Below are positions 8,501 to 49,740 of a stretch of DNA of 49,806 nucleotides, in pieces (positions within the stretch are counted from its first letter, which is position 1; each line of letters opens with the position of its first letter). The notes beneath the pieces are model-generated. The model saw only the letters and a program-made list of their open reading frames with translations, ran no database searches and was not told where the DNA came from. The position numbers and the translations under genes are program-made. This stretch comes from Fimbriiglobus sp. (lineage in GTDB: Bacteria; Planctomycetota; Planctomycetia; Gemmatales; Gemmataceae), in assembly GCA_035699305.1 (NCBI GenBank), contig DASSAT010000395.1, positions 1 through 49,806 on the forward strand, in the 5' to 3' direction.

Positions 8501-9171
8501 GCCCACGAGTCGGCCGAGGGGTAGGTCTTCGGGTCGAGGCGGTGCAGCACCGCACTCGCCCGTGAGAGCTTCTGGGCACCCTTGCGGACCATCCGCCAGT
8601 CCTGATTGTGGATCTCCTTGCAAGCGGCGACGAACTGCTCCAGCCGGCCCTCGGCTTCGAGTTCGATCTCAAGCTCGGCGATGTCGAAGTCCTCGGCGTA
8701 GTCGAGTTCCCGGAGCAGGACGGTGTACATCAACTCGGCGATCCGCTCCGTCACCTTCCGGGTGTCCCGCTCCTTCGCCACCTCGAACAGAATGACCTCG
8801 GTGGGGATGCGGGCGTTGATGCTGTCGAGCAGGTCGCCGACCCGGCGGTCGCCGATCTGCGTCTTGAACAGTTCGGCGAACGGCCGGCCGGCCAGCGGCC
8901 GGTTCTGGAGGGCGTACCCGAGGTACTTGGCGAACGAACTCTTCCCCGACCCGAAGAACCCGGACACCCAGACCCCGACCCCCTCGTGCGGGTCGGACGG
9001 GGCCTCGGCGACGGCCCGGAGCAGTTGGTGGTACTGGTCCCGGATGCTGTCGGTGGCGACGTACTCGGTGATCTCGGCGAGGACGGACTGCTCGTCCGCC
9101 TGATCGACCTGAATGATCTCCTCGATCTTCCGGCCGAGGTCTCGGTGCAGCAGGTCGGCGATGGCTTGCAT
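5521..9171 (-). CDS. brxC: BREX P-loop ATPase BrxC/PglY
   Basis: Start trimmed to MQAIADLLHRDLGRKIEEIIQVDQ (ATG 9171). Walker A GFFGSGKSSFAKYLG. ~1217 aa. Sits between brxB and pglX. Confidence 0.9.
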   Translation of the reverse strand: MQAIADLLHRDLGRKIEEIIQVDQADEQSVLAEITEYVATDSIRDQYHQLLRAVAEAPSDPHEGVGVWVSGFFGSGKSSFAKYLGYALQNRPLAGRPFAELFKTQIGDRRVGDLLDSINARIPTEVILFEVAKERDTRKVTERIAELMYTVLLRELDYAEDFDIAELEIELEAEGRLEQFVAACKEIHNQDWRMVRKGAQKLSRASAVLHRLDPKTYPSADSWAHAQRSRDASITVSRVVERTFDLWGRRRKGKALVFIIDEVGQHVARSGDKIEDLRATVEEFGKVGKNLLKQRKIPAPCWIVVTSQEKLDEVVAAIDSKRVELAKLQDRFRHRVDLAPSDIREVATKRVLAKKQTAEPVLRKLFDENGSTLNAALRLERTTRRTEVAEADFVQFYPYPPHYIDLCIGIMSGVRLQPGAPRHYGGSNRTIIKQAYEMLVSDRTAMAKKPVGALVTLDKVYELVEGNLSNEKRTDIHEIGQRFKSDPDDKGWALRTAKVICLLEFIRDLPRTEANVAAFLVDEVGKPAPLKEVQAAVKRLHAAQFVRSTEEGWKLQTAQEKNWETERRGHLEPRPREENEIARETLEEVFGEPALKTYRYKDHKTFRLGIAVDGTSLGDEGDITLSLCVADDPDGFQKRLAEVREESRQKGHENDVYWAFALTPEIDDLVKEVHASRKMVEKYDQLRAQNKITTDEATCLQDEKNAALNYRSRLRDKLTEALERGTGMFRGVASDAPSLGKTLGEIVKKLLGKVVPDLYPKLEMGSRPLKGDEAEVLLKAANLQALPQVFYGGENGLGLVTKDGAKFVPNPAADVAKEVLGYLVSEHGYGNKDTRLGKALEKKFGGIGYGWDRDVLRLVLAALFRAGAIEVTHGGRKFDSYQDPACRVPFTNNTAFKSALFTPVKPIDLKTLKRAVESYEDLTGETVAMDKTAIAEALKKLAGEELKVLYPVEAQAKSHSLPVAGPVQEYRDTLAAIESGSADDCVNTLSGSATSLKAARERLRKLADCLDDTGLATIRQARTAADQMWPQLEGRGQTGLAEKVAELRGLLASETFYESFPKIGTTATEVGSAYRALYQQVHADRATEFAQAVEKVKGRAEWSAVPETMREPVLAPLAGRSCPDLDLPVGGMVCQRCRATLSQMESDLAALGGLLAGVVAQIQKLTAPPDKKVQRVRLAEFFSGPMDSEEQVRQAVARLQDHLLKLLEEDVKIVVE

Positions 9172-9185
9172 GGCGGTCCTCGGCC

Positions 9186-9767
9186 TCACCCGTAGATCTT
9201 GACCCGGTAGTTGCCCAGCGCCTCCCGGCCGGTCAGGTCCATGAACCGCAGGCCGGTCGTCCCCTCGATGGAGCCGGGGTAGCACAGGATGGTCGTCACC
9301 CGTGACCGGCCCTGCATCTGGTCGAGCAGCTTCGACATGTGGTAGACGCCGGGGGCCATCGCCGCCACACGGGTCAGGAACACCACGCTCCGGGCCGGGT
9401 CGAGCGGCTTGAGTCGGTCCTCCAGCATCCTCGCCAGCGGGCACCAGTCCTTGTCGGACAGGTAGGTCGCCACCTGATCTTGGGCCTCAAGATACCCCCG
9501 GCCCCGCTCCAGTGCGACCACCTCGTCGAGCCCCTCGGTCTCTTGGACCGCCCGCCACAGGAACTCGGACATCGGGAGCAGGTGGACCTCCCTGCCCACG
9601 GCTTCGAGCCGGGTGGCGAGCAGCCGCACCTCCCGCCGCAACTCCCACTCCCGGTCCGGCTCGTACCGGAGGACGGCGAACGGCAGGTCGTGGTAGACGC
9701 TGATCCGGGGCGGCACCGCCTTCAGGTCGGCTTCGAGGAGTTCAATCCGGTCTTTGAGCGACGACAT
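9186..9767 (-). CDS. brxB: BrxB (DUF1788-like)
   Basis: 193 aa. ISVYHDLPFAVLRYEPDREWELRREV... matches the DUF1788 pattern as I remember it. GAGGAG SD upstream. Position is between brxA and brxC. Confidence 0.8.
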   Translation of the reverse strand: MSSLKDRIELLEADLKAVPPRISVYHDLPFAVLRYEPDREWELRREVRLLATRLEAVGREVHLLPMSEFLWRAVQETEGLDEVVALERGRGYLEAQDQVATYLSDKDWCPLARMLEDRLKPLDPARSVVFLTRVAAMAPGVYHMSKLLDQMQGRSRVTTILCYPGSIEGTTGLRFMDLTGREALGNYRVKIYG

Positions 9768-19294: not shown

Positions 19295-19558
19295 CTACCT
19301 CATCCCCTTGATCTCGGCGATCCGCCCAAGCAGGTAGCCCACCTCGTCGCCGTCCAGCCCGGCCACCTCGGCGATCCCGTGGACATTGCGGATCAGGTCG
19401 GCTTCTGCGCCCAGAAACGTCTTGAACGTGACCTTCCCCTCGACCCGAGCGAGCAGGCAGCGGTCGGGGGTGATCCGCATCTCCTCGATCCGGGGCGTGC
19501 CCCAGTCCTCGCCCAGCAAGCTGCCGAGGATGGCCGTGAACATGCCGCCCGTCTCCAC
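19295..19558 (-). CDS. Hypothetical protein (87 aa)
   Basis: Normal composition (MFTAILGSLLGEDWGTPRIEEMRITPDR...). No family recognised. Confidence 0.45.
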   Translation of the reverse strand: METGGMFTAILGSLLGEDWGTPRIEEMRITPDRCLLARVEGKVTFKTFLGAEADLIRNVHGIAEVAGLDGDEVGYLLGRIAEIKGMR

Positions 19559-19703
19559 CTCACGGAGCTACCGGGCGCAGTCCCGCCGGATGTCATCGGG
19601 CTCCCGCACCGCCCCGTCGGCCATGTCCAAACCCCCGCCGCCCACGCCTCGTTGTCCGGGAGATTCTACCACCACGGCATTCCGAACACCGCCCCATCCG
19701 CAC

Positions 19704-19717
19704 TGACGGACACCGGC
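19704..19717 (+). promoter_or_regulatory. Motif copy M2
   Basis: TGACGGACACCGGC, 39 nt upstream of the ardC ATG. Followed by a partial inverted copy CCGGTGGTGT (19719-19728). Confidence 0.7.
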
Positions 19718-19756
19718 ACCGGTGGTGTGACCCAAACAGCGACCGGAGGGACGCCG

Positions 19757-20677
19757 ATGTCCACCCAGACCGAGATCCGCCGCCGGATCAACGACGAGAT
19801 CGTCGCCGCACTGAGCGACCCCACGAAACTCCCGCCGTGGCGGAAGCCGTGGACGTGCTTCGACGCCAACATCGGCCACCCCTGCAACGCCCTGACCAGA
19901 AAGCCGTACCGGGGGATCAACACCCTCATCCTCGGGCTGAGCGCCCAGCGGCGGGGCTTCCAGTCCCGGCACTGGCTGACCTTCCGGCAGGCGAAGGAGA
20001 TGGGCGTCAGCGTCCGTGGCGGCGAGAAGAGTACGCACATCGTCTTCTTCAAGCCGATCCGGGCCGAGCGAACCACCGAAGACGGCGAGGAGAAGCAAGA
20101 CACGTTCTTGCTGATGAGAAGCTACTGCATATTCAACGTGGAGCAGACGACCGGCCTCGACCACCTCCGGGTCGGCAACGCCCCGCTCACTGCTGTTCAG
20201 ATCGAGCAGCGGCACGAGCAGGCCGAAGCCGTGATCGCAGCGACCGGGGCCGACATCCGGCACGGCGGCGACCGGGCCTTCTACAGTTCCACCGGCGACT
20301 ACATCCAGCTTCCGCACCACCGCCAGTTCGAGCGGATCGAAGCGTACTACCAGACGGCGGGTCACGAGCTTTGCCACTGGGCCGAGCACCCGATCCGCCT
20401 GAACTGGGACCGCTCCAAGCCCGAGAACAGCTACGCAATGGGCGAACTCATCGCCGAACTGGGTGGCTGTTACCTGATGGGGGAACTCGGCCTGCCGACC
20501 GGCGAAGACCTCAGCAACCACGCCGCCTACCTCAAACACTGGCTCGCCGGGATGCACAACGACACGAGGTTCCTGTTCCGTGCGGCAGCGCAGGCGAGCA
20601 AGTCCGTGGACTACCTGCTCAGCTTCAGCCGGGCGCAGGATGCCGCCACCGAAGATGACGAAGCTCTGGTCGCCTGA
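19757..20677 (+). CDS. ardC: ArdC-like antirestriction protein (ssDNA-binding N-domain plus zincin metallopeptidase)
   Basis: Start trimmed to MSTQTEIRRRINDEIVAAL. LPPWRKPW, YRGINTLIL and the HExxH motif HELCHW are present. Confidence 0.85.
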   Translation: MSTQTEIRRRINDEIVAALSDPTKLPPWRKPWTCFDANIGHPCNALTRKPYRGINTLILGLSAQRRGFQSRHWLTFRQAKEMGVSVRGGEKSTHIVFFKPIRAERTTEDGEEKQDTFLLMRSYCIFNVEQTTGLDHLRVGNAPLTAVQIEQRHEQAEAVIAATGADIRHGGDRAFYSSTGDYIQLPHHRQFERIEAYYQTAGHELCHWAEHPIRLNWDRSKPENSYAMGELIAELGGCYLMGELGLPTGEDLSNHAAYLKHWLAGMHNDTRFLFRAAAQASKSVDYLLSFSRAQDAATEDDEALVA

Positions 20678-38553: not shown

Positions 38554-39396
38554 TCACGTCCCGCACATGCCGTGGCACTCGCCGGTGGTCATCGGGTCGA
38601 GGGCGTTCGGCTGGAGGGCGGTGAAGTCCAGCACCGCCAGCGGGACGCATGAGCGGTGGACGAAAAGTTCCTGCCGGAACCCCCGGTTGCAGACGCTGTT
38701 CTCGTCCCGGAGAGCGTTGTCGATCTCGACCGCTCGTGCCCATCCCTCGGGGTCAATGGCCTTCAGGTTCATCCAACTCTGGTTGGTGCGAAACGGGCAG
38801 AACACGCACGACGACTTCGGGACATCGTGAGGCAGTTTCCCTCGCAGGTACTCCACGCAGTCCTTCCGGCTCCAGCCCATGTCGATCAGGGGCCAGTGGG
38901 GGACGGTGTGCTTGATCCCCTCGAACCGCTTCTTCGCCCGCTCAGCCCTCGCCGCCTCATCAGTGCTGATGCCGAAATACTGGTGGACGGTCACGTCCTT
39001 CGGGATGCGCTGCCTCGGCTTCAGCCCGAGCAATTCCCGGCGGATGGTCCGGTTCACCACCTCGATCTTGTACTCGGCGGTGCATTGCCGGCGGACCATC
39101 CCGACCTTCCCCTCGGGGCTCTTCGTGAACGCCGGGATCGAGACGAACCGCTGGCCGGTCGAGTTCCGGCCGTGGATCAGGTCGTCACCGAGCTTGCCGG
39201 CGGACCGGACCCAGATCTCGGGGGTGCCGAGGGACCGGAGGTGATCGAGGTGGCGGTAGACGGCGGACGGCTCCTCGCCGGTGTCTGCGAACACGGCGAG
39301 GTCGAACCGCAGGTCGGCGTCGGGCTCACGGGCCAGCAGGAACAGGGTGGTGCTTTGGACCCCCGCACCGAGGTTAAGGACGTGGAACTCTTTCAC
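38554..39396 (-). CDS. PP-loop ATPase of the PAPS-reductase-like (phage-type) family
   Basis: 280 aa. N-terminal PP-loop-like VLNLGAGVQSTTL. CVFCPF and a C-terminal Cys cluster ECHGMCG. Confidence 0.75.
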   Translation of the reverse strand: MKEFHVLNLGAGVQSTTLFLLAREPDADLRFDLAVFADTGEEPSAVYRHLDHLRSLGTPEIWVRSAGKLGDDLIHGRNSTGQRFVSIPAFTKSPEGKVGMVRRQCTAEYKIEVVNRTIRRELLGLKPRQRIPKDVTVHQYFGISTDEAARAERAKKRFEGIKHTVPHWPLIDMGWSRKDCVEYLRGKLPHDVPKSSCVFCPFRTNQSWMNLKAIDPEGWARAVEIDNALRDENSVCNRGFRQELFVHRSCVPLAVLDFTALQPNALDPMTTGECHGMCGT

Positions 39397-39416: not shown

Positions 39417-39887
39417 TCACAATTCCCAGCGGTACTTTGGCTCGTGGTATACGTCTTGGCTCTTGCGGGGGCGTTTCGGGTTCCCCCACTCGTGCGACTC
39501 CAGCGGGCCGGTCGGGATGGCCCCGACCGCCCGGAGGGAGGCCCCGCCCTCCGACTCCAGCGTGTAGGTGATGACCTTCTCGTAGCCCATCAGCCGGGCG
39601 ATCTTGGCGCAGCGGGCGTAGAGGAACGAGCAGGCGTTCGGGGTGCCGTCCGTGCAGACCCGGAGCACCTCCAGCGTCCGGCCGTCGTCGAGGCGGCGGG
39701 AGATGGGCCGGCCGGCGACGGCGACCCCGACCAGCGTGCCGTCGTCGTTGGCAGCGCCCACGGCGAACTTGCCGCCGACCGTGGGCAGGTTGTGCCGGTG
39801 ATGCCGGGCGACGAACTCGTTGGCTTCTCGGAGATGGAGGGGGACCGCACGCACACGGTATGTAGTCCCGTGACACCCGTTCTTCAC
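39417..39887 (-). CDS. XF1762-like GNAT-fold protein
   Basis: 156 aa. ANEFVARHHRHNLPTVGGKFAVGA...LVGVAVAGRPISRRLDDGRTLEVLRVCTDGTPNACSFLY...ITYTLESEGGASLRA. This pattern matches my memory of the XF1762 family, often next to PAPS-reductase-like genes in prophages. Confidence 0.6.
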   Translation of the reverse strand: MKNGCHGTTYRVRAVPLHLREANEFVARHHRHNLPTVGGKFAVGAANDDGTLVGVAVAGRPISRRLDDGRTLEVLRVCTDGTPNACSFLYARCAKIARLMGYEKVITYTLESEGGASLRAVGAIPTGPLESHEWGNPKRPRKSQDVYHEPKYRWEL

Positions 39888-39894
39888 TCCCGAG

Positions 39895-42534
39895 TTAGAG
39901 CCTCGGGTCCACCGGCTCGCTCTCCAATGCGAGGACGCCGAAGACGCACTCGTGGACCCGCCGCAGCGGCTCCCGGCGTGCGAACCGCTCCAGCCCCTCG
40001 ACCCCGAGGGCGAACTCCCCGAGGGCCAGCGACCGCTTGTGCCCCAGCCCCCGGCTCCGCAGCCGGGAGAGGTTCTCCTCGGCGGTGTAGTCCGGGCCGT
40101 AGATGATCCGCAGGTACTCCCGCCCCCGGCACTTCACGGCCGGCTGGGCGATCCCCCGCCGGCCCCGGAGGATGAAGTCGAGCGGTTTGACCACCATGCC
40201 CTCGCCGCCCCGTCCAGTGAGGGCCGTCCACCACTCCGTCCCCTCGGCTTGGCTGGCCGGGTCGGTCACGTCCACGACCTTGTACGAGGTGGCCAGAAGC
40301 AGGTCGGGGTCCGCCCGGCAGACCGACGCCAGCGTCTCCATGTGCCACGGGTGGCCCTTGTCCGTGTGGGCCTTCCCCTCCGAGGCCAGCAGGTGGAACG
40401 GGGCGAGCTTCAGGTCCGTCAGCGAGTTCACCGGCCAGCAGTAGTGCCGGTACGCCGCCACGAACTGCCGGAGGCCCTGCTCCTTCCGGGAGCAATCCCC
40501 CGCCACCCGTTCGAGCTTGGCCCTCTCCTCGCCGGCGAGCCGGGTCGAGGCGGCGGCGAGCGAGGCGACGGCCCGAGGGAGTGCGGCCGTCCCGGCGGCT
40601 CCCACCGCTGCGTACTGGGTCTTGAGAAGTTCCTGCGCCTTGGCCGACCACGGCATCAGTTCACAGTCCAGACACACCCATGTCGTCCCCAGCGCCGCCC
40701 ACACATCCGCCGCCGTCAGCGCCGCCCGCACCCGGTCGAGGAACCGGACCTCCAACGCCGGATCGGTGAAGAACCGCCGGCCGGTGCGGGTGTAGACGAT
40801 GCCGGTCTCGCCCTCGGTGACGCCGAACCGCTCCCACGCCGCAGCCTCGTCCCGGCAGGCGACGACCACCGCCCTCGACCCCATGTGCTTCTCCTCGCAG
40901 ATCACCTGCGGGGCACCTTGGGAGCGGTAGTAGGCGAACGCCTCAGCCGGGTGCTCCAAGAGGCCCGGCTCGGTGCTCGTCTCACAGGGGGACATCGTGG
41001 GCGGCAGGTAGATCAGCCACCTCGGGTCGGCGGCGAACCGGCTCATCACCTCCAGCGCCGCCGTGGCGTGCGCCTCCCGGATGGTGACGGCCCCCCGCAG
41101 CCGGGTGGTGACGATCCGCTTGCCGAGCACGTCCTCGGCGTCGAGCACCTCGTCGTGGGCCTGCTGGGCTGTGAGCTTGGGGGCCTGCTCGCCTTCAGGC
41201 AGGAAGGGCCGGGCGGCTTCGCAGTACGTCCTCGCCGCCGGGACCGAGACGAACTCCTTCTCCGGGTAGCGGAGGGCGGTGAGCTTGCCGCCGAAGACGC
41301 AGCCGGTGTCGATGTTCACCGTCCGGTTGAGCCACTCCGCTTCCGGGACGGGCGTGTGGCCGTAGACGACCATCGCCGATCCCCGGTATTCCGCCGCCCA
41401 GTTGTACCGGACCGGCAGGCCGAACTCGTCCGTTCCCCCGGTCGTCTCGCCGTACAGGGCGAAGTCCCGCACCTTGCCCGACCCCCGGCCCTGCATCTCG
41501 GCCTTCATCCCGGCGTGGGCCACCACCAGATTGCCGCCGTCGAGGACGTAGTGGCTGACCAGCCCGTCGAGGAATTCGGACAGTTCCCGGCGGAACGGCT
41601 CCCGCACGTCGTCCGGCAAGGCGTCGAACTCGGCGAGGGTGTTGGCCAGCCCGTGCGTAACCTGCACGTCCTTGCCCCGGAGCTTCTTGAGCAGCTTCAT
41701 GTCGTGGTTGCCGGGGACGCACAGTGCCGACCCGGACCGGACCATGTTCCGCACCAGCCGCACCGTGTCGAGCACCCGTGGCCCCCGGTCCACCAGATCG
41801 CCGACGAAGACGGCCTTGCGGCCCTCGGGGTGGGCGTAGGCCCGGTCCCCCCAGACGGAGGTTTCCCCTTCTAGCGATGTCGTCCCGTACCCGAGCAGTT
41901 GGAGCAGGGCCTCAAGCTCGTCGAAGCAACCGTGAATGTCGCCGATGATGTCGAACGGGCCGTGGTCGGCGGTCCGGTCGTTCCACAGCGGCACCCGCTC
42001 GACCACCGCCGCCTCGACCGCCTCCGGCGTCTCCAGCACGAACACGTGGCGAAAGCCCTCCCGCTGGAGGCCCTTGAGGGACCGCCGCAGTTGCGACCGC
42101 TGGTTGCGGACGACGTGGGGGCCGAACGAGCGGTCCGGGCGGGACCGGTTCCGCTCCTGACACACCACTTCGGGCAGGTTCAGGACGACGGCGACGGGGA
42201 GGCAGTGGTACTTGCGGGCCAAGGCGACCAGCGGGGCACGGGCCTCGGGCTGGACGTTGGTGGCGTCCACCACGGTCAGCCGCCCGAGGGCGAGCCGCTG
42301 GGCGGCGACGAAGTGCAGCAGGGCGAACGCCTCGCCCGTCACCGACTGGTCGTTCTCGTCGTCCGATACCATCGCCCGGCAGGCGTCCGACGACAGGATC
42401 TCGGTCGGCTTGAAGTGCCGGCGGGCGAACGTGCTCTTGCCCGACCCGCTCGGGCCGATCAGGACGACGAGGGAGAGGGTAGGAATCTTGATCTGTGACA
42501 TCTGCCGCCGAGCCGTGTGGGGCTGTCTCCTCAT
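39895..42534 (-). CDS. pnkp: Polynucleotide kinase-phosphatase/ligase Pnkp (RNA repair)
   Basis: P-loop kinase VVLIGPSGSGKSTF. Metallophosphatase GDIHGC, GDLVDRGP, GNHD. Ligase/adenylyltransferase lysine motif CEEKHMGSR. ATG 42534 overlaps the HEPN stop (ATGA). ATG 42501 (MSQIKIPTLSLVV) is an alternative start. Confidence 0.9.
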   Translation of the reverse strand: MRRQPHTARRQMSQIKIPTLSLVVLIGPSGSGKSTFARRHFKPTEILSSDACRAMVSDDENDQSVTGEAFALLHFVAAQRLALGRLTVVDATNVQPEARAPLVALARKYHCLPVAVVLNLPEVVCQERNRSRPDRSFGPHVVRNQRSQLRRSLKGLQREGFRHVFVLETPEAVEAAVVERVPLWNDRTADHGPFDIIGDIHGCFDELEALLQLLGYGTTSLEGETSVWGDRAYAHPEGRKAVFVGDLVDRGPRVLDTVRLVRNMVRSGSALCVPGNHDMKLLKKLRGKDVQVTHGLANTLAEFDALPDDVREPFRRELSEFLDGLVSHYVLDGGNLVVAHAGMKAEMQGRGSGKVRDFALYGETTGGTDEFGLPVRYNWAAEYRGSAMVVYGHTPVPEAEWLNRTVNIDTGCVFGGKLTALRYPEKEFVSVPAARTYCEAARPFLPEGEQAPKLTAQQAHDEVLDAEDVLGKRIVTTRLRGAVTIREAHATAALEVMSRFAADPRWLIYLPPTMSPCETSTEPGLLEHPAEAFAYYRSQGAPQVICEEKHMGSRAVVVACRDEAAAWERFGVTEGETGIVYTRTGRRFFTDPALEVRFLDRVRAALTAADVWAALGTTWVCLDCELMPWSAKAQELLKTQYAAVGAAGTAALPRAVASLAAASTRLAGEERAKLERVAGDCSRKEQGLRQFVAAYRHYCWPVNSLTDLKLAPFHLLASEGKAHTDKGHPWHMETLASVCRADPDLLLATSYKVVDVTDPASQAEGTEWWTALTGRGGEGMVVKPLDFILRGRRGIAQPAVKCRGREYLRIIYGPDYTAEENLSRLRSRGLGHKRSLALGEFALGVEGLERFARREPLRRVHECVFGVLALESEPVDPRL

Positions 42535-44006
42535 TCACCGTCCACGCCACTGAGGACGGACCCTCCCTCGTTCATTGTCTGCCAGACGTGCCTCTCTTGT
42601 CGCAGGCGGTGGTGCGATCTGATCGCTGACCGCAGGGTGTCCTCGGGTACGCCGGCCTTCACCAAGAGGACAACACGGAGCATCAGTGACAACTTCTGGA
42701 TCGCCCAGTGCAGATCCGCCCCTTGGAGGATCTTGCGGTCTTGTCCCGTGGAGTAGTGCGTGTAATGGTTGCGGGTATCGACGACGCCTTTGATGAAGAC
42801 CTCCCTGTCGGTGCAGAACAGTCGCCACGTGTCGTCCCCCAATTCGGAGAGCAGGCCGAGTAGCTTGCGCCGCAAGGTGCGGCTGTTGGCGTGCCCCAGA
42901 CTGTTCCTGATCGACTCGATCAACTCGCCGGGTAGTCCGGCGGGTAGCGATGCGAGCATCCGGTCCCGGACATCCCTGTACGTGTCCTTGGGGACAATCG
43001 CAGCGTTCGGGCCTTCGCCCGACAAGACCTCGGCCGCATGTACCAGAGGCAGGAACCGAAGCTCGATGAACTCGGACGGCCTGCGTTCGCTGGACAGCAG
43101 AATGCTCCGGGCACCCTTCACCGCTTCGGTCGCACCCAGCCAGTTCTCAACGATCTGGCGGAACCCCGTCTCGATTTGCTGGTATCGGACCACGAAGTCC
43201 ATCGCCGTGTACGGTCCGACCTCGGCGGTGTGCCGTGGGTAGTAGAGCAAGGCTCCGGCACGGCTCGGGCCGTCCTTGTAGAGAGTCAGCCGCCGTGACA
43301 GCAGGCTCCCTCCGTAACAGACCGCAAGCAGGCCGACGATCTCGGACGCTTGGCTGACGAACCAGTTGATCGGCTTCGGCTCGGCCGGGGCGATCTCCAT
43401 GTACGTGTGGTGCTCAATCGTGGGGCTGGTCCCGAGCGGGTGTCCCGGTGGCCGGACGGCGTGGATCAGACGCAGGGCCGAGCTTGTCGCTGAGATCTCG
43501 ATGCTGATGTTCGTAGGCCGGGTGTAGTCGAGCCGGACCGTCTCGCCCTCGCCCCCCATCTCGGCCCGAAAGGGCGACTCGCCGAGCCAGTCTTCGAGGT
43601 ACGGGATCTCGACCCGGCACTTGGCGAACGTCTCGTCGGGCGACGACAGATGGACGCCTTCGAGCAGCCAACCACAGTGCAGTTCGGCCGAACGAATGGC
43701 CGTTGTCGTGCCCGGCCGAACGGCGAGCGTCCGCACGTCAGGCGTCCATTTCGTGTAAAACGAACGCAGCACCGTGACCGGTACGGCCTCCAGCGTTTCC
43801 CCGAGGATGACGGGGAACTCAGTCGATGTCGGGGTGGCACTGAACGGGGACTCGACGTGGGCTTCGTTGAGGCCCTCGTAAAGCGAAAGGGTCAAGTCCC
43901 CCTCCGTGTAGCGGAGATCGCCCGCAATCCGCTGGTTGGTGATGGGCAACCACCAGTGGCCTCGGATCGTGAAGTGCTCGCTCTGCGAATGCGCCTTCCT
44001 GCTCAT
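42531..44006 (-). CDS. ApeA-like HEPN-domain protein (predicted RNase) nested between hen1 and pnkp
   Basis: 491 aa after trimming to MSRKAHSQSEHF (ATG 44006 overlaps the hen1 TGA as ATGA). The N-terminus FTIRGHWWLPITNQRIAGDLRYTEGDLTLSLYEGL resembles ApeA_NTD1. The C-terminal VVDTRNHYTHY carries an Rx4H HEPN motif. Lower GC than its neighbours. Confidence 0.6.
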   Translation of the reverse strand: MSRKAHSQSEHFTIRGHWWLPITNQRIAGDLRYTEGDLTLSLYEGLNEAHVESPFSATPTSTEFPVILGETLEAVPVTVLRSFYTKWTPDVRTLAVRPGTTTAIRSAELHCGWLLEGVHLSSPDETFAKCRVEIPYLEDWLGESPFRAEMGGEGETVRLDYTRPTNISIEISATSSALRLIHAVRPPGHPLGTSPTIEHHTYMEIAPAEPKPINWFVSQASEIVGLLAVCYGGSLLSRRLTLYKDGPSRAGALLYYPRHTAEVGPYTAMDFVVRYQQIETGFRQIVENWLGATEAVKGARSILLSSERRPSEFIELRFLPLVHAAEVLSGEGPNAAIVPKDTYRDVRDRMLASLPAGLPGELIESIRNSLGHANSRTLRRKLLGLLSELGDDTWRLFCTDREVFIKGVVDTRNHYTHYSTGQDRKILQGADLHWAIQKLSLMLRVVLLVKAGVPEDTLRSAIRSHHRLRQERHVWQTMNEGGSVLSGVDGE

Positions 44007-45412
44007 CTGTCTTCTCTCGAAAAAACTCCCATTTGGGTCGGCGACCCGTGCTCGGGGTGCTCCGGCCCGACCGGCAGGAACCGCACCGTGTAACCGAACC
44101 GGGAAGCGATCCCGGTCGCCCAGTCCCGGAACTCCCGGCGGGTCCACTCGAACCGGTGGTCCGGGTGCCGGAGCCGGCCCGCCGGGAGGGTCTCCCACGT
44201 CACGTTGAACTCCCGGTTCGGGGTCGTCAGCACGACCGACCGGGGCCGGGCGAACTCGAACAGCACCCGCTCGAACGCCGACAGCCGGGGCGGGTCGAGG
44301 TGCTCGACGACCTCCACCACCGAGGCGGCGTCGAACCCCGCCAGCCGCTTGTCCCGGTACATGAGCGAGCCGTGGACGAGCTTCACCCGGTCGGCTTGGC
44401 GGTCGGGCAGGTGGTCGAGCTTCAGCCGGCGGGAGGCGACCTCCAGCGTGCGGACCGACACGTCCAGCCCGACGACTTCCCCGAACTGACGGTCCTTGAG
44501 GAGTTCCCGGACCAGCTTGCCCTCCCCGCACCCGAGGTCGAGCACCCGGTTGGCCCCGCTCGCCCGCAGCGCCGCCACCACCGCCCCGAGCCGCTGCTCG
44601 TTGAGGCTGAGCGGCTTCTCCAAGGTCGTCTCGGCCTGTTCTCGGGGCCGCTCCCCGTCCTCCTCGGCCTCGGCCGGCTCCTCCTCCTGCACGAGCCGGG
44701 CGAGGGCCATCCGGTACAGGCTCGGCTGGAACCGCAGGTAGCGGCGGGCGATCTCGTCCTTCTCTGGGTGGGTGGCCAGCCAGCCCTCGCCCTTCGCCAG
44801 CAGCTTCTCGATCTCGTCCTCGCCGACGAAGTAGTGCTTGCGGCCGTCGAAGACCGGGACCAGCACGTACAGGTGCGTCAGCAGATCGGCCAGCGTGCTC
44901 GACTTCCGCACGGCCACGGAGAAGTACGGGCTCTCACCCCACTCGGGGAACCGCTCGTCGAGCGGGTGGCGAACGGCCTCGACCTCGTACCCGAGGGGCT
45001 CGAACATGGCCCGTAGGACGGCCTCACCGCCCCGCACCGGGAGCACGTCGAGTCGGGCTTCGAGGGGGATCGGCGAGGCGACCAACTCGGGGCGGTCCTT
45101 ACACCGCCCTTGCATTGCCGAGCCGAGGACTTGGCTGATCGCCACGCTCAGGAAGGACGAGGCGGCGTAGGGCCGGTCATTGACGTACTGGGCGAGCAGG
45201 AAGCTCTGGTCGGGGTTCCGGCCCCGGACCATGCCCACGGCGTCCACGTCGAGCAGCAGGCAGGCCGAGCACCGGTCGTCCCCGGCCTCGGGGTAGTAGA
45301 CGTGGGCCTTGCCGAAGCTCAGGTCGAACGACTGGAACTTGTCCGGGTGCTTGTGGAGCAGGAAGCCCAGATCGGTCGCCGGCCGGTGGGTAGTCGTGAT
45401 CGTCAGCAGCAT
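44003..45412 (-). CDS. hen1: Bacterial Hen1 RNA 3'-terminal ribose 2'-O-methyltransferase
   Basis: 469 aa. MLLTITTTHRPATDLGFLLHKHPDKFQSF is the typical bacterial Hen1 N-terminus. The C-terminal SAM motif is VLDLGCGEGKLVREL. Confidence 0.85.
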   Translation of the reverse strand: MLLTITTTHRPATDLGFLLHKHPDKFQSFDLSFGKAHVYYPEAGDDRCSACLLLDVDAVGMVRGRNPDQSFLLAQYVNDRPYAASSFLSVAISQVLGSAMQGRCKDRPELVASPIPLEARLDVLPVRGGEAVLRAMFEPLGYEVEAVRHPLDERFPEWGESPYFSVAVRKSSTLADLLTHLYVLVPVFDGRKHYFVGEDEIEKLLAKGEGWLATHPEKDEIARRYLRFQPSLYRMALARLVQEEEPAEAEEDGERPREQAETTLEKPLSLNEQRLGAVVAALRASGANRVLDLGCGEGKLVRELLKDRQFGEVVGLDVSVRTLEVASRRLKLDHLPDRQADRVKLVHGSLMYRDKRLAGFDAASVVEVVEHLDPPRLSAFERVLFEFARPRSVVLTTPNREFNVTWETLPAGRLRHPDHRFEWTRREFRDWATGIASRFGYTVRFLPVGPEHPEHGSPTQMGVFSREDR

Positions 45413-45678
45413 CCTTCGAGCCTCGGAGCGGCACGGACCCGCTGCCGCCTACGCATTCCGTGACTGACACGGTTTAGGTCGCCCCGGTTCACCCTACCAT
45501 CTGACCTTCTCTCTCCGAGACAGTCCGACTCGTCTTCAGCATGAGCGGCAGGCCCACTCGGAGATTCCTGATCGCCGTAGGACACCTCGACTCGATACAA
45601 CCGGCCGGGAGAAGGCGGTCGCAGGCGGTTGTGACCCGGCACCCCTTACCGTCATCTAAAGGTGCCCAAGTGTCTCAT

Positions 45679-45731
45679 GTGGCCGATAGGAGTTCGAGAA
45701 CAGACACGTGGCCGATAAGGTGGCCGATAAG
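45679..45731 (+). repeat. Three direct 12-nt repeats GTGGCCGATA(A/G)G
   Basis: Copies at 45679-45690, 45708-45719 and 45720-45731. The last two are in perfect tandem. Confidence 0.85.
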
Positions 45732-45760
45732 GGTGAATTGAGTTGCCGTAAGTCCTTTAT

Positions 45761-45789
45761 TTGCAACACTTGCGACTTGGCTTGAGTAT
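45761..45789 (+). promoter_or_regulatory. Sigma70-like promoter candidate in the AT-rich core of the intergenic region
   Basis: TTGCAA (45761-45766), 17-nt spacer, GAGTAT (45784-45789). It points at the hairpin at 45810. Confidence 0.3.
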
Positions 45790-45809
45790 CCCCGGCGCCT
45801 CCACTATCT

Positions 45810-45847
45810 GACACGCCCTGCGGAAACGCAGGGCGTGTCTCTTTTTG
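45810..45847 (+). terminator. Strong intrinsic terminator with no upstream plus-strand CDS
   Basis: 13-bp perfect stem GACACGCCCTGCG / CGCAGGGCGTGTC with GAAA loop, followed by TCTTTTTGG. Confidence 0.65.
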
Positions 45848-45895
45848 GACTTACGTCGAAACACCAATCCCGCAAGGGCTTACGACCGGGCCTTC

Positions 45896-45941
45896 GTGTC
45901 AGATAACGTGTCAGATAAGCCCGCCCGTCGTGTCAGATAAG
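45896..45941 (+). repeat. Three direct repeats GTGTCAGATAA(C/G), plus one inverted copy at 45805-45814
   Basis: Copies at 45896-45906, 45908-45919 and 45930-45941. They share GTG..(A/C)GATAAG with the 45679-45731 repeats. Confidence 0.85.
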
Positions 45942-46076
45942 CCGGTCCAGACCACCCTCCTGGTCGGGACAACTGTCCCGACTTCCCCGCCCCCTGACAC
46001 CGGCTGTCCCCCGCTTGTCGGCCGGCCGTTCGTGGCCCGGCCGAAGCGTTCTACACTGCCGACCGGGGGATACCGT

Positions 46077-47819
46077 ATGAGCCGTAACCGTGACCTGAAG
46101 CCGGACGCCCAGGGCCGCTACCGCCCGTACCTCGGGTGGAAGGCGGACATCGCCATCGGCGACGACGGAACGCCCCGGTACTCGAACCAGCGGCAGCACC
46201 GCTTCAACCTCGGTACGGACAAGCGGGAGGCCGAGCGGCGGCTGGCCCGGCTACGGGAGTTGTGGGACGAGAACTGCCGGGCCAACGGCGAGGAGGTCTG
46301 GACGGCGCACGCCCTCTCCTACGCCGAGCGGATCGCCCGTGGCGAGTACCGGATCGAGGTTCCCCCGCTGACCGAGACCGACGGGTACGACGACCCGCCC
46401 GCCGGGTACGCTGAGGTCATCCAGTTCGAGCGGGACTTGTACCCGTCCCTCGACATCGTGCCCGCCGACCCAGTTCAGTACGAGGCGTCGAAGGCCATGA
46501 GCGAGCGGGTCGTGGCCGACGAAATGCGCCGCTTGGAAGCCGACCTGCGGGAGTGGGGTGCGCTCCCGTCCAAGCGGTCGTTGCCCGAGAAGTTGATCTC
46601 CGGGACGTTCCACGAAGCCCTGGACGCCTACGCCGAGGACATCCGCACGACGGCCAAGCGGCCCGGCACGGACGTGCTGACCCCTTACGGGCGGCTGCGC
46701 CTGGCCCACGCCACCCGGCTCAAGCGGCAGCACCCCGACGTGCCGCTCCACTCGCTCACCTACGACGCCTGCCAGAAGTTGATCGCCGTCTGGCGGAACC
46801 GGCCGAAGGGGGTGCGGACCGACCGGCCGACGAGCTACGACAACGCCCGTCACCACATCGGCGAACTGATGCGGTTCTTCCGGTGGCTGGACGCCACCGA
46901 CAAGTACCAGTGGTCGATGCCCCGAGGGCTGGAGCGGGTGAGCCGGAAGATTCCCAAGACCGCCGACGAGAAGCGGCTGAGTGCGATCACCGTCGAGACG
47001 TACTCCGTCGAGGAACTGGCGGTGCTGAACCGGCACGTCCTGCCGGTGGAGCGGTTCCTGCTGTACGTCGGGCTGAACTGTGCGATGGGTGCCGCCGAAC
47101 TCGGGCGGCTCCGGGTCGATGACGTGCTGCGGAACCACCGGCACGAGTACGCCGAACGGCTGCACTTTGAATCGACCGGGGCGGACAACTTCATCCGCTT
47201 CCTCCGGCCGAAGACCGGCGTCTTCGGGGAGTGGTGGCTGTGGCAGCCGACCGTCCAGATGCTCGATTGGGCGATCCGCCGGGCGGGCCGGATCGGGGCG
47301 AAGGTGCTGTGTGTCACCGAGGAGGGGCACCCCTGGTATAACGAGGGGTCCACCAACTCGCAGGCCACGTTCGCAAACGTGTGGGGGCGGCTGCTGGGGC
47401 GGGTGCGTAAGTCCCACCCGGACTTCCGCAGGTTGCCGTTCGGCAGCCTGCGGGACACCCTGCCTGACCTCATGCGGCACCGCTTCGACGACGAGTTGGC
47501 GAGCCTGTGCCTCGCCCACGGCTCCCCGTTCCGGCAGGACAACCTGCTCGAATGCTACGGGAACAAGCCGTTCGGCCGGTTGCACAAGGCGTTGAGAAAG
47601 ATGGAGGCGGTCATGGCCCCGGTGTTCGAGGCAGCCCCGGCCGACCCGACCGAGGAGCGGAAGACGTACCTGCCCATCGTCACCCTGGACCGCATCAAGG
47701 CGATGTTGGGGGAGGACAAACGGCCTGGCGAAATCGCCAAAGAGTGCGGCGTCTCGACCATGACCGTTTACCGGGTGCGGAAGGACATCAACGGCGGTGC
47801 CGGGTCAGGCTCGGACTGA
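46077..47819 (+). CDS. Integrase-like protein (tyrosine-recombinase-like layout) with C-terminal HTH
   Basis: Start trimmed to MSRNRDLK, with GGGGGA SD. The layout resembles a core-binding plus catalytic domain (RFLRPKTG..., SLRDT, LCLAHG, LLECYGN). I could not find the first catalytic Arg. The C-terminus GEIAKECGVSTMTVYRVRKD is an HTH. Confidence 0.45.
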   Translation: MSRNRDLKPDAQGRYRPYLGWKADIAIGDDGTPRYSNQRQHRFNLGTDKREAERRLARLRELWDENCRANGEEVWTAHALSYAERIARGEYRIEVPPLTETDGYDDPPAGYAEVIQFERDLYPSLDIVPADPVQYEASKAMSERVVADEMRRLEADLREWGALPSKRSLPEKLISGTFHEALDAYAEDIRTTAKRPGTDVLTPYGRLRLAHATRLKRQHPDVPLHSLTYDACQKLIAVWRNRPKGVRTDRPTSYDNARHHIGELMRFFRWLDATDKYQWSMPRGLERVSRKIPKTADEKRLSAITVETYSVEELAVLNRHVLPVERFLLYVGLNCAMGAAELGRLRVDDVLRNHRHEYAERLHFESTGADNFIRFLRPKTGVFGEWWLWQPTVQMLDWAIRRAGRIGAKVLCVTEEGHPWYNEGSTNSQATFANVWGRLLGRVRKSHPDFRRLPFGSLRDTLPDLMRHRFDDELASLCLAHGSPFRQDNLLECYGNKPFGRLHKALRKMEAVMAPVFEAAPADPTEERKTYLPIVTLDRIKAMLGEDKRPGEIAKECGVSTMTVYRVRKDINGGAGSGSD

Positions 47820-48113: not shown

Positions 48114-48186
48114 CTCATCCTGCGGTCGGCCTCGATTCGTTTTGTCGGTAAACTCGTGGGAACAAAGACCGTTCGAGGCGACGCCG

Positions 48187-49740
48187 ATGGCTGGCAAGCT
48201 GCCGCTGAATCTGAACGACCTGCTGCGCCAGCGGACCGTCGAGGGCGACCGCATCGAGTACAAGGCGGGCTGGAACCCGGACGCCGTGGTGCGGACACTC
48301 TGCGCCTTCGCCAACGACTTCGAGAACCTGGGCGGCGGGTACGTCGTCATCGGCCAGGACTGCGTGGACGGCAAACCCGTCTTCCCGCCGGTCGGCCTGA
48401 AGGACAACCAACTCGACCCGATCCAGCGAGAACTCCTCGGCTACTGCAATCAGATTCAGCCGACCTACTTCCCGAACCTGAGCGTCGAGAAGTACGAGGG
48501 CAAGAACCTGCTCGTGCTGTGGGCACCGGGCGGGCTGAACCGCCCGTACAAGGCCCCCCGAGCCGTCACCGCCAAGACGAAGGAGTACCACTACTTCATC
48601 CGCCGGTTCTCTAGCACGGTCGAAGTGAAGTCGAACAGCGAGGACGAACAGGAGCTTCTGCGGCTGACGGCGACCGTGCCGTTCGACGACCGCCAATGCC
48701 GCACCGCTGACGTGGATGACCTGCGCCCTGGGCTGCTTCAGGCGTTCTTGAAAGAAGTCGGCAGCGAACTCCACAAGCGGGCGAGCAAGATGCCGCTGGT
48801 GGAGTTGGGTCGGCAGATGAACATCGTGGACGGGGCCGACGAGTTCGTGAAGCCCCGCAACGTCGGCGTGCTGTTCTTCCACGACGAGCCGAGGACGTTC
48901 ATTCCCGGTGCGCAGATCGACGTGGTGATCTTCCCGGACGGTCCCGGCGGCGACGTTCTCATCGAGAAGGAGTTCCACGGCCCGCTGCACGAGCAGGTGC
49001 GGGACGCCTTGCGGTACATCGAGAGCAGTGTGATCCGGGAGAAGGTCATCAAGCACAAGGACCGGGCCAAGGCGACCCGGCTGTTCAACTACCCCTTTCC
49101 GGCCGTCGAAGAAGCGGTGGTGAACGCCGTCTACCACCGCAGTTACGAGCAGCGGGAGCCGGTGGAAGTGCGGGTGAACCCGGACGGGATCGAGATCGTC
49201 AGTTACCCCGGCCCGGACGCCTCGATCCGCATCGAGGCGTTGAACGCCGACAAGATCGTGGCCCGGCGTTACCGCAACCGCCGCATCGGGGAGTTCCTGA
49301 AGGAACTGGAACTGACCGAGGGCCGCTGCACCGGCATCCCCAAGATGCGTGCGTCGATGAAGAAGAACGGTTCACGCCTGCCCCGGTTCTCGACGGACGA
49401 GGGGCGGACGTACTTCCTGGTGGAGTTGCCGGTTCACGCTCAGTTGCCAGGGGTGAAGGCACAAGACGAGGCCCAAGATCAGGCCCAAGATCAGGCCCAT
49501 GTTCTAAACGACACCGAGCGGCGGTTACTGGAAGCGTTGGAAAAGGGGCCACTGGCAACGGCACAGATTGCGGCAGCCCTGGGACATTCGAGCCGCAGCG
49601 GTGCGATCAAGCTCGCCCTCACCCATCTCGAATCCCTCGGCCTGATCGAACTGACGATCCCTGACAAGCCACGAAGTCGAAACCAGATGCGGCGGCTGAC
49701 TAGCAGTGGAAAGGCGTGGCTTGCCCAGCAATCGAACTGA
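48187..49740 (+). CDS. AlbA_2 (Schlafen-like) DNA-binding plus ATPase-like plus winged-helix protein (family often annotated as RecG-like transcriptional regulator)
   Basis: Start trimmed to MAGKLPLNLNDLLRQRTVEGDRIEYKAGWNPDAVVRTLCAFANDFENLGGGYVVIG. The middle has AVEEAVVNAVYHRSY. The C-terminus is wHTH-like (LLEALEKGPLATAQIAAALG). Confidence 0.75.
   Translation: MAGKLPLNLNDLLRQRTVEGDRIEYKAGWNPDAVVRTLCAFANDFENLGGGYVVIGQDCVDGKPVFPPVGLKDNQLDPIQRELLGYCNQIQPTYFPNLSVEKYEGKNLLVLWAPGGLNRPYKAPRAVTAKTKEYHYFIRRFSSTVEVKSNSEDEQELLRLTATVPFDDRQCRTADVDDLRPGLLQAFLKEVGSELHKRASKMPLVELGRQMNIVDGADEFVKPRNVGVLFFHDEPRTFIPGAQIDVVIFPDGPGGDVLIEKEFHGPLHEQVRDALRYIESSVIREKVIKHKDRAKATRLFNYPFPAVEEAVVNAVYHRSYEQREPVEVRVNPDGIEIVSYPGPDASIRIEALNADKIVARRYRNRRIGEFLKELELTEGRCTGIPKMRASMKKNGSRLPRFSTDEGRTYFLVELPVHAQLPGVKAQDEAQDQAQDQAHVLNDTERRLLEALEKGPLATAQIAAALGHSSRSGAIKLALTHLESLGLIELTIPDKPRSRNQMRRLTSSGKAWLAQQSN
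49470..49499 (+). repeat. In-frame 12-nt tandem repeat GGCCCAAGATCA x2.5
   Basis: Encodes the AQDQAQDQA linker in the AlbA_2-type protein. Confidence 0.8.

Follow-up and report, generated by a model that had tools for sequence, protein, structure and literature searches.

Why should a gene for a putative RNA-cutting toxin lie between two genes for RNA repair? This question is raised by a locus of Fimbriiglobus sp. (Planctomycetota; contig DASSAT010000395.1), in which a gene of the ApeA type, here apeA, lies between hen1 and pnkp, the gene pair that makes up the Pnkp/Hen1 cassette for repairing RNA. The window, that is, the whole stretch of DNA that was analysed, is 49,806 nucleotides (nt) long. 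A first-pass annotation, made from the letters of the window alone, picked out the apeA-like gene and took its low GC content as a sign of horizontal insertion into an older hen1-pnkp cassette. What it missed is the point of greatest weight, namely, that a ribotoxin-type RNase, as predicted from its family, is translationally coupled with enzymes of RNA repair and immunisation, and that this coupling is conserved; the main interest of the locus lies in this coupling and not in the GC dip. The features concerned are the following.

44003 to 45412, minus strand: hen1, RNA 3'-terminal ribose 2'-O-methyltransferase with an N-terminal Pnkp-ligase-binding domain
44003 to 44006, minus strand: ATGA overlap of the hen1 stop (TGA) and the apeA start (ATG); the sequence reads ...gacagATGAgcagg
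42531 to 44006, minus strand: apeA-like gene, 491 amino acids (aa), beta-rich ApeA_NTD1 followed by alpha-helical HEPN_Apea
43140 to 43967, minus strand: ApeA_NTD1 domain, residues 14-289, mostly beta, putative sensor or scaffold
42639 to 42968, minus strand: core of the HEPN_Apea domain, residues 347-456
42756 to 42773, minus strand: catalytic-type Rx4H motif RNHYTH (R412, N413, H417), codons cgc aac cat tac acg cac
39895 to 42501, minus strand: pnkp, likely start ATG 42501 (MSQIKIP...), 29 nt past the apeA stop

The frame and start that the first-pass annotation chose for apeA hold. Translation starts at the ATG 44006-44004, and the 491-aa product begins MSRKAHSQSEHFTIRGHWWLP, an N-terminus that lines up with the N-termini of all full-length homologs in the alignment. 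The longer 666-aa open reading frame (ORF), which extends to 44531 and had already been called artefactual, is therefore an upstream over-extension that overlaps hen1. A protein search recovered 40 homologs of the apeA product, 33 of them 483-501 aa long and the others shorter or partial; at E ≤ 1e-3, the wider ApeA family runs to 3,419 representative clusters, most of them of 450-500 aa. Phage genomes encode no relative of the protein, and the relatives encoded on plasmids are distant (20-25% identity). One database protein, P0038, fuses ApeA_NTD1 to GNAT domains.

The two-domain architecture proposed at first sight, a beta-rich N-terminus of the ApeA type followed by an alpha-helical HEPN end, was borne out by Pfam profiles, both far above their gathering cut-offs. 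ApeA_NTD1 (PF18862; E 9.2e-27, score 94.6 bits, cut-off 25.5) is matched over profile positions 2-271 of 271, and HEPN_Apea (PF18739; E 1.9e-18, score 67.6 bits, cut-off 24.4) over positions 26-135 of 136. The sequence DTRNHYTHY, singled out early for the Asn that follows the Arg of its Rx4H signature, contains RNHYTH as residues 412-417; R412, N413 and H417 are invariant in an alignment of 24 homologs with identities down to 34% (A1), which has 27 invariant columns, those of the catalytic motif among them. A second Rx4H match, RNSLGH (residues 367-372), was dismissed because it is not conserved across the homologs. Among the PADLOC models, the protein matches the candidate defence system PDC-S58 (E 2.9e-48) and the Cas13-ApeA HEPN model (E 6.8e-32). 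PADLOC also contains an ApeA-named model; none so named is among the matches at E ≤ 0.01. NCBIfam has no model matching the protein.

The AlphaFold2 model built on the homolog alignment is confident (predicted local distance difference test (pLDDT) 87.5, predicted template modelling score (pTM) 0.83); its N-terminal half is rich in beta structure and its C-terminal half entirely alpha-helical. DSSP assigns about 20 strands to residues 12-255, and RNHYTH lies at the end of the helix 401-417; the HEPN domain modelled alone (pLDDT 89.3) is all helical. Foldseek comparison with the PDB returned noise, with no match at E ≤ 0.001 for the full-length model or for the separate HEPN-domain model, and a sequence-profile search of PDB sequences likewise gave no match; the cryo-EM structures of ApeA were not among the PDB entries compared. 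As structural comparison yielded nothing, the family call rests on the hidden Markov models and the motif. By all these sequence criteria, the apeA product can be firmly assigned to the Pfam-defined ApeA family (ApeA_NTD1 plus HEPN_Apea; ApeA/BMEI1217), in which the N-terminal domain has been described as 'mostly beta strands' (PMC3710099).

The flanking genes resemble the Pnkp/Hen1 cassettes of Clostridium thermocellum and Anabaena variabilis (PMC3675462, PMC4411300) in that hen1 and pnkp are co-oriented and retain all domains and the catalytic motifs that were checked. Hen1 matches Pfam Hen1_L (PF12623; 2.5e-113) as well as methyltransferase domains, and its motifs are intact (the S-adenosylmethionine-binding LDLGCGEG, VVEH and HPDHRFEW); its best matches are 79-90% identical, and several come from metagenome-assembled genomes (MAGs) named Gemmataceae or Gemmata, the identity to Hen1 proteins of named Gemmataceae being 80-90%. 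Pnkp contains the kinase, metallophosphatase and ligase modules (AAA_33, 6.8e-30; Metallophos, 1.2e-13; PNKP_ligase, 9.8e-181), with an intact P-loop GPSGSGKS, phosphatase motifs GDIHG, GDLVDRG and GNHD, and ligase motif EKHMG. Judging by its homologs, pnkp most probably starts at ATG 42501 and not at the in-frame ATG 42534 (MRRQPHTARRQ...), which would overlap the apeA stop and has no counterpart among the homologs; seven orthologs start at the position of M12, and the upstream start is probably an 11-codon over-extension (42499-42534). The canonical cassette consists of two adjacent genes, as in one close relative (L138, see below), whereas here the 1.5-kb apeA splits hen1 and pnkp exactly at their junction. 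The ATGA overlap of hen1 and apeA implies translational coupling and, with it, co-expression.

Is this arrangement peculiar to the window? Gene context was readable for 17 relatives of the apeA product, 16 in a clade with at least 44% identity plus an outgroup (P0040); the sample was limited to 12 contigs and a single scan each of genomes and metagenomes. The order hen1-apeA-pnkp is found in nine of the 16 clade members with known context, that is, in the window and in eight other planctomycete loci: the P0002 contig, L130 (P0008), L133 (P0010), L002 (P0013), L131 (P0018), L003 (P0019), L134 (P0022) and L135 (P0025). The resulting 9:7 ratio of linked to solo genes is one of small numbers. The ApeA of the P0002 contig is 85% identical to that of the window, and those of the remaining trio loci 47-57%. 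In each of the seven other loci with DNA (L002, L003, L130, L131, L133, L134, L135), the hen1 stop and the apeA start overlap, as ATGA or, in L130, as GTGA; for the P0002 contig, represented by gene coordinates only, the called hen1 and apeA overlap by 4 nt. The distance from the apeA stop to the beginning of pnkp is 29-45 nt in the window and in six of these seven loci, the exception being L130, where a DUF5677/DitA-like gene lies between apeA and pnkp. By comparison, none of more than 100 loci of distant ApeA-family members (about 20-27% identity; genomes and metagenomes) has hen1 or pnkp in the fetched flanks.

The linked genes also share part of their history. Across the linked loci, the pairwise identities of ApeA and Hen1 correlate (Mantel r = 0.66, p = 0.01), and the closest Hen1 pairs (81-85%; among L003, L131 and L134) are the closest ApeA pairs too (57-58%). 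ApeA diverges about twice as fast as its neighbours (47-57% identity, as against 67-85% for Hen1 and 70-82% for Pnkp), and linked members occur in every major branch of the ApeA subfamily tree, a simple neighbour-joining tree. The partial co-divergence of ApeA and Hen1 points to long residence of apeA in this slot, not to repeated random landing.

Two of the trio loci show a damaged pnkp next to intact apeA and hen1. In L134 (7508-9773), pnkp is cut off after 141 aa and a DUF772 transposase-like gene lies nearby; in L130 (11237-13655), pnkp is split into four ORFs, possibly by assembly frameshifts. If this damage is real, ApeA can be retained where Pnkp is no longer functional. Another recurrent feature around the trio loci is the presence of GNAT acetyltransferase genes, directly after pnkp in L135 (10180-10572) and divergently upstream of hen1 in L131, L133 and L134; this may be coincidence or shared synteny.

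How might the trio work? ApeA of E. coli cleaves tRNA anticodon loops on phage infection, is gated through a ligand pocket and is toxic when spontaneously activated (bioRxiv 10.64898/2026.01.26.701840); by analogy, the apeA product is probably a latent HEPN RNase, specifically, a tRNA anticodon-loop nuclease. We propose that ApeA would be held latent until an infection or stress signal, sensed via the N-terminal domain, switches it on. The active enzyme would then cut RNA by the metal-independent HEPN mechanism, the likeliest targets being tRNA anticodon loops, as with E. coli ApeA, and the breaks would leave a 2',3'-cyclic phosphate and a 5'-OH as ends, which are substrates of the co-encoded Pnkp/Hen1. 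The latter complex is known to mend ribotoxin-cut tRNA and to methylate the junction against re-cleavage (PMC4411300, PMC3675462). Here, it would remove the cyclic phosphate, phosphorylate the 5' end, 2'-O-methylate the nucleotide at the break and reseal the RNA, which would thereby become refractory to a second cut at the same site. Pnkp/Hen1 could thus serve ApeA as an antidote or reset, reducing autoimmunity from leaky activation and allowing recovery from translational arrest instead of death. Structured tRNAs, the halves of which are held together, would be repaired in preference to cleaved foreign transcripts because repair requires both ends to stay together. Co-transcription of an RNase toxin with genes of RNA repair has a precedent in Salmonella, where dinJ-yafQ is transcribed together with the rsr-rtcBA operon (PMC9879122). 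We regard the chances that ApeA is functionally coupled with Pnkp/Hen1 as evenly balanced. The fuller proposal, in which hen1-apeA-pnkp is a three-gene immune module that cuts, marks and reseals, combining a signal-gated anticodon nuclease, a reversible effector and a chemical memory on the tRNA pool, is put forward tentatively, its probability being somewhat short of even.

Several points weigh against such a module. For the apeA product, we infer the RNase activity, the target, the trigger and the interaction with Pnkp/Hen1; neither ApeA nor Hen1/Pnkp requires a partner; and constitutive repair and methylation could blunt an abortive-infection effector. The E. coli ApeAs that have been studied are about 600 aa long and have alpha-helical N-terminal domains, so that the label of a tRNA anticodon nuclease is an extrapolation here, and Foldseek found no solved structure in the PDB that resembles the whole model or the HEPN domain. 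Other points come from the comparison of loci. Seven members of the clade with at least 44% ApeA identity are solo and have unrelated surroundings, which include resolvase, NADAR and HEAT genes in a Gimesia MAG, a KAP NTPase gene upstream of apeA and, elsewhere, a nearby integrase. In the neighbour-joining tree, the solo genes are nested among the linked ones, and for one of the linked loci, L133, the positions in the apeA and hen1 trees disagree. At 79% identity or more, the Hen1 of the window has at least 120 related clusters, compared to nine ApeA clusters at 55% or more. Furthermore, the slot itself varies among the three close Hen1 relatives in which its content was examined, a small sample. 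In L138 (1410-5422), the closest of them (Hen1 identity 90%), the slot is empty, hen1 overlapping pnkp directly by ATGA; in L140 (6328-11732; 85%), it holds a 440-aa HEAT-like protein. In the trio locus L130 (6598-13655), the slot contains ApeA together with the DUF5677/DitA-like gene. Such unrelated cargo, in L140 and L130, fits a neutral insertion hotspot. The third relative, L139 (8001-14347; Hen1 identity 85%), speaks for the module instead: its slot is occupied by an HNH-like 124-aa protein, an RNA_ligase (PF09414) and an HD + AAA_33 kinase, and the extra RNA ligase and HD/kinase protein lend the slot a thematic coherence.

The competing explanation that survives best is that apeA is a passive hitch-hiker, a genuine possibility, albeit one that we lean against. 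The hen1/pnkp junction would then be a place that tolerates insertions, or a slot with exchangeable content between conserved flanks, in which an ordinary single-gene ApeA defence gene borrows the transcription and translational coupling of the operon; ApeA would act against phages and Pnkp/Hen1 against foreign ribotoxins, each working independently. The empty slot in L138 and the other cargo in L139 and L140 speak for this reading, as do the solo ApeAs of the subfamily, which adjoin resolvase, integrase or KAP-NTPase genes; however, of the 16 subfamily members with known context, nine occupy precisely this slot and share the 4-nt overlap, compared to none of the more than 100 distant ApeAs, and the cargo of L139 likewise consists of RNA-repair enzymes. 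The lower GC of apeA and its roughly twofold faster evolution, as well as the wealth of mobile-element and defence genes in the window (BrxC-like, ArdC, Schlafen-like, SspD-like), suit a passenger, whereas the partial co-divergence with hen1 implies long residence. Finally, ApeA has been described as a one-gene system; yet the chemistry matches, the products of HEPN cleavage being substrates of Pnkp/Hen1.

The simplest summary of these loci is that the hen1/pnkp junction is an exchangeable cargo slot that the ApeA subfamily has long held in several lineages of planctomycetes, though not without loss, replacement and escape; apeA is accessory cargo that has been partly co-inherited with hen1 and pnkp and sometimes lost, replaced or relocated. 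Hen1 and Pnkp of the window share 83-90% identity with the apeA-less loci but 67-74% with the other loci in which apeA is linked. When compared in 60-residue windows, they are closer to the apeA-less Gemmataceae loci nearly throughout, including the 3' end of hen1 and the 5' end of pnkp; the exception is a stretch in the middle of pnkp (residues 181-240), for which the scores of L131 and L003 exceed that of L138. This comparison revealed no conversion or recombination tract from foreign hen1 or pnkp ends.

Two proteins of L140 were considered as possible divergent ApeA or HEPN proteins, namely, the 440-aa slot protein and a 577-aa protein: hhalign against the ApeA profile gave less than 1% probability, and Pfam and PADLOC gave nothing convincing. 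The 577-aa protein, with an Rx4H-like sequence TTRSGYVHE, is encoded after pnkp in two related loci, L140 (11885-13618) and the P0002 contig.

What, then, does the GC dip tell? The counts that drew attention to it, made on single 60-nt lines, are correct (0.57 in apeA and 0.72 in pnkp), but they are unrepresentative of gene-wide GC and exaggerate the contrast. Over the whole genes, GC content is 63.6% in apeA, 70.6% in pnkp and 69.9% in hen1, and the GC content at third codon positions (GC3) is 81.9%, 93.1% and 93.4%, respectively (z = -7.3 for the GC3 gap between apeA and hen1/pnkp). The GC3 of apeA ranks third-lowest of the 30 predicted genes in the window, and hen1 and pnkp have the two highest values. 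The contrast is real and local, yet apeA is no outlier in this mobile-element-rich window. Moreover, in all seven orthologous loci with DNA, apeA falls short of the hen1 and pnkp beside it by about 6-11 points in GC and 7-19 points in GC3 (typically, 9-10 and 13-19 points), regardless of whether the GC of the host locus is 54% or 64%, and the offset is equally present in the window, at 67% GC. Because the same offset recurs across hosts at about 50% protein divergence, the GC dip cannot mark a recent acquisition, and we rejected it as a dating tool. Repeated exchange of alleles would account for it, as would an accessory gene that evolves fast and is probably expressed weakly; it supports a foreign or accessory apeA but not a recent one. 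The claim of an insertion into an older hen1-pnkp cassette is supported on other and better evidence, that is, the empty site in L138, the other cargo in L139 and L140, and the excess of Hen1 over ApeA clusters; the acquisition itself was neither a one-off nor demonstrably recent, given the eight other trio loci and ApeA distances that track Hen1 distances.

A different role for the same chemistry, which we consider improbable, would be a programmed 'vaccination', in which ApeA is not primarily an abortive toxin but a site-specific tRNA nickase that enables Hen1/Pnkp to place a 2'-O-methyl group in the anticodon loop, so as to protect the tRNA pool in advance against anticodon nucleases of foreign origin, or to tune translation. 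The gene order and coupling would yield near-stoichiometric amounts of cutter, methylase and ligase, Hen1 installs its mark only at a break (PMC3675462), and the in vivo RNA substrates of the repair system are stated to be unknown (PMC4411300). Most hen1-pnkp operons have no ApeA, however, so that the repair system is independent of a cognate cutter; the studied ApeA homologs are ligand-gated defence effectors and not housekeeping enzymes, and solo ApeAs exist in the same subfamily. That apeA could be a decaying remnant or a mis-called gene, given that its GC3 is below that of its flanks and that high-GC DNA yields many spurious long ORFs, is scarcely credible and is effectively refuted by the intact frame of ortholog-like length, the two domains matched end to end, the 27 invariant columns over 24 homologs that include the catalytic motif, the confident structure model and a codon-position pattern typical of a genuine gene (GC3 of 0.82, far above the 0.47 at second codon positions, GC2).

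The proposed module differs in part from the ApeA systems characterised so far. Gao et al. 2020 is reportedly the source for Ec1ApeA and Ec2ApeA as anti-phage defence proteins. Like these, the apeA product is a single polypeptide with a large non-catalytic N-terminal region and a C-terminal HEPN_Apea domain with R-N-x-x-x-H (RNKITH in Ec1ApeA and RNHYTH here). The E. coli proteins are, however, about 580-600 aa long and 'predominantly alpha-helical', with N-terminal and Mid domains, unlike the 491-aa protein with its beta-rich NTD1, which at about 490 aa is near the size of Bm1ApeA, a 467-aa minimal Brucella homolog that protects against DNA phages (10.64898/2026.03.20.713152). The characterised proteins (Ec1-Ec4ApeA, Pa1ApeA) are encoded by stand-alone genes, whereas this one is embedded in hen1-pnkp with a start-stop overlap; its PADLOC matches, PDC-S58 and Cas13-ApeA HEPN with none ApeA-named, are a further difference. 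E. coli ApeA homologs cleave tRNA anticodon loops, protect against phages and form doughnut-shaped oligomers (bioRxiv 10.64898/2026.01.26.701840); by family analogy, phage-triggered anticodon-loop cleavage, protection and doughnut-shaped oligomers might be expected here as well.

The nearest conceptual parallel to hen1-apeA-pnkp is PrrC, another latent HEPN-type tRNA anticodon nuclease, the gene of which is embedded among those of other enzymes acting on nucleic acids, in the operon of the EcoprrI type Ic restriction-modification cassette. The damage done by PrrC is reversed by the kinase-phosphatase Pnkp and the ligase Rnl1 of phage T4. Thus, the repair enzymes are phage-encoded and defeat the defence, whereas here they belong to the same operon, and a 2'-O-methyl immunity mark is added. 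The N-terminal domain of PrrC is an ABC-ATPase and not ApeA_NTD1, and masking of the nuclease by its operon partners, shown for PrrC, would be conjectural here. PrrC is mentioned in PMC12776372 and PMC3710099.

In the Salmonella rsr-yrlBA-rtcBA operon with dinJ-yafQ, as predicted here, an endoribonuclease that makes 2',3'-cyclic phosphate ends shares a transcription unit with RNA repair (PMC9879122, PMC7790460). Self-inflicted tRNA damage is tied to repair there too, the operon being induced by tRNA halves that an endogenous, SOS-activated nuclease produces by cutting anticodons. The differences are that repair proceeds by RtcB ligase chemistry without a methylation step, that YafQ has its own protein antitoxin and has been shown to be dispensable for activation of the operon, and that the nuclease gene lies downstream of the operon, whereas apeA is intercalated and translationally coupled. 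Toxin-antitoxin systems with a damage-reversing antidote are comparable in the way that they work and in no other respect: the overlap implies co-expression, and the chemistry of Pnkp/Hen1 suggests neutralisation.

In the searchable literature, we found no paper that joins ApeA with Hen1 or reports a gene for a HEPN RNase within an operon of Pnkp/Hen1, an earlier mention in comparative genomics being possible, and the two ApeA preprints (10.64898/2026.01.26.701840, 10.64898/2026.03.20.713152) do not mention Hen1, Pnkp or RNA repair in such a sense. The structure and biochemistry of Pnkp/Hen1 have been under study for more than 15 years, with the in vivo substrates and the source of the damage remaining unknown and foreign ribotoxins being assumed as that source (PMC4411300); the trio supplies a concrete candidate for both. 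If the module is real, ApeA would be the first cognate, genome-encoded ribotoxin for bacterial Pnkp/Hen1, and the hen1/pnkp junction in Planctomycetota would be a slot for swapping RNA-damaging or RNA-end-processing effectors. An effector packaged with the enzymes that undo its own collateral damage would also bear on the debate over killing versus arrest by tRNA-cleaving systems; for ApeA, abortive infection was reported in one preprint (10.64898/2026.01.26.701840) and non-abortive protection in the other, which describes cleavage of RNA-phage genomes (10.64898/2026.03.20.713152). The variable hen1/pnkp slot is also a lead toward new RNA-targeting effectors. If the coupling is merely positional, apeA would be one more accessory gene of defence, remarkable only for the place where it has landed.

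The trio belongs to a run of five tightly packed, co-oriented minus-strand genes, in the order hen1, apeA, pnkp, an XF1762-family gene and an SspD/PAPS-reductase-like gene. Beyond the trio, the features are these.

39417 to 39887, minus strand: XF1762-family gene (NCBIfam NF045478, 7e-55)
38554 to 39396, minus strand: SspD/PAPS-reductase-like gene (PADLOC SspD, 8.7e-13)
45413 to 45929, no strand assigned: intergenic region upstream of hen1, 517 nt, of lower GC; presumed promoter or regulatory region

The gaps downstream of pnkp are 7 nt to the XF1762-family gene and then 20 nt to the SspD-like gene, and both genes may be co-transcribed. Neither is found downstream of pnkp in the P0002 contig, L131 or L135; given this lack of conservation in orthologous loci, the two genes probably stand outside the module and may form a separate DNA-modification or defence pair.

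The region upstream of hen1 contains repeated GTGTCAGATAA and GTGGCCGATAAGG motifs. Between 45679 and 45948, GTGTCAGATAA occurs three times in direct and once in inverted orientation, and GTGGCCGATA(A/G)GG three times; a perfect hairpin with a 13-bp stem (45810-45839) is followed by a T-run. A 629-aa helix-turn-helix protein is encoded next to this region (45930-47819), and the repeats and the hairpin may serve it as operators, iterons or sites of recombination. We found no sigma-70 consensus promoter upstream of hen1, and the Rfam and tRNA scans of the window gave no family and no tRNA gene.

The rest of the window looks like a stretch rich in mobile-element and defence genes. It encodes a 1307-aa protein with a weak, sub-threshold BrxC-like match (5521-9444, minus strand), an anti-restriction-type protein with ArdC-N and MPTase-PolyVal domains (19379-20677, plus strand) and a Schlafen AlbA_2/HATPase_c_4 protein that matches PADLOC models associated with prokaryotic Argonaute (pAgo; 48142-49740, plus strand). 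The WD40, Ser/Thr-kinase/Laminin_G_3 and GYF/MORN genes that are also present are compatible with a planctomycete; together with the named Hen1 matches, they make a Gemmataceae genome the likeliest source. L135 likewise has an ArdC/MPTase gene, which lies on the strand opposite to hen1 and about 0.5 kb upstream of it.

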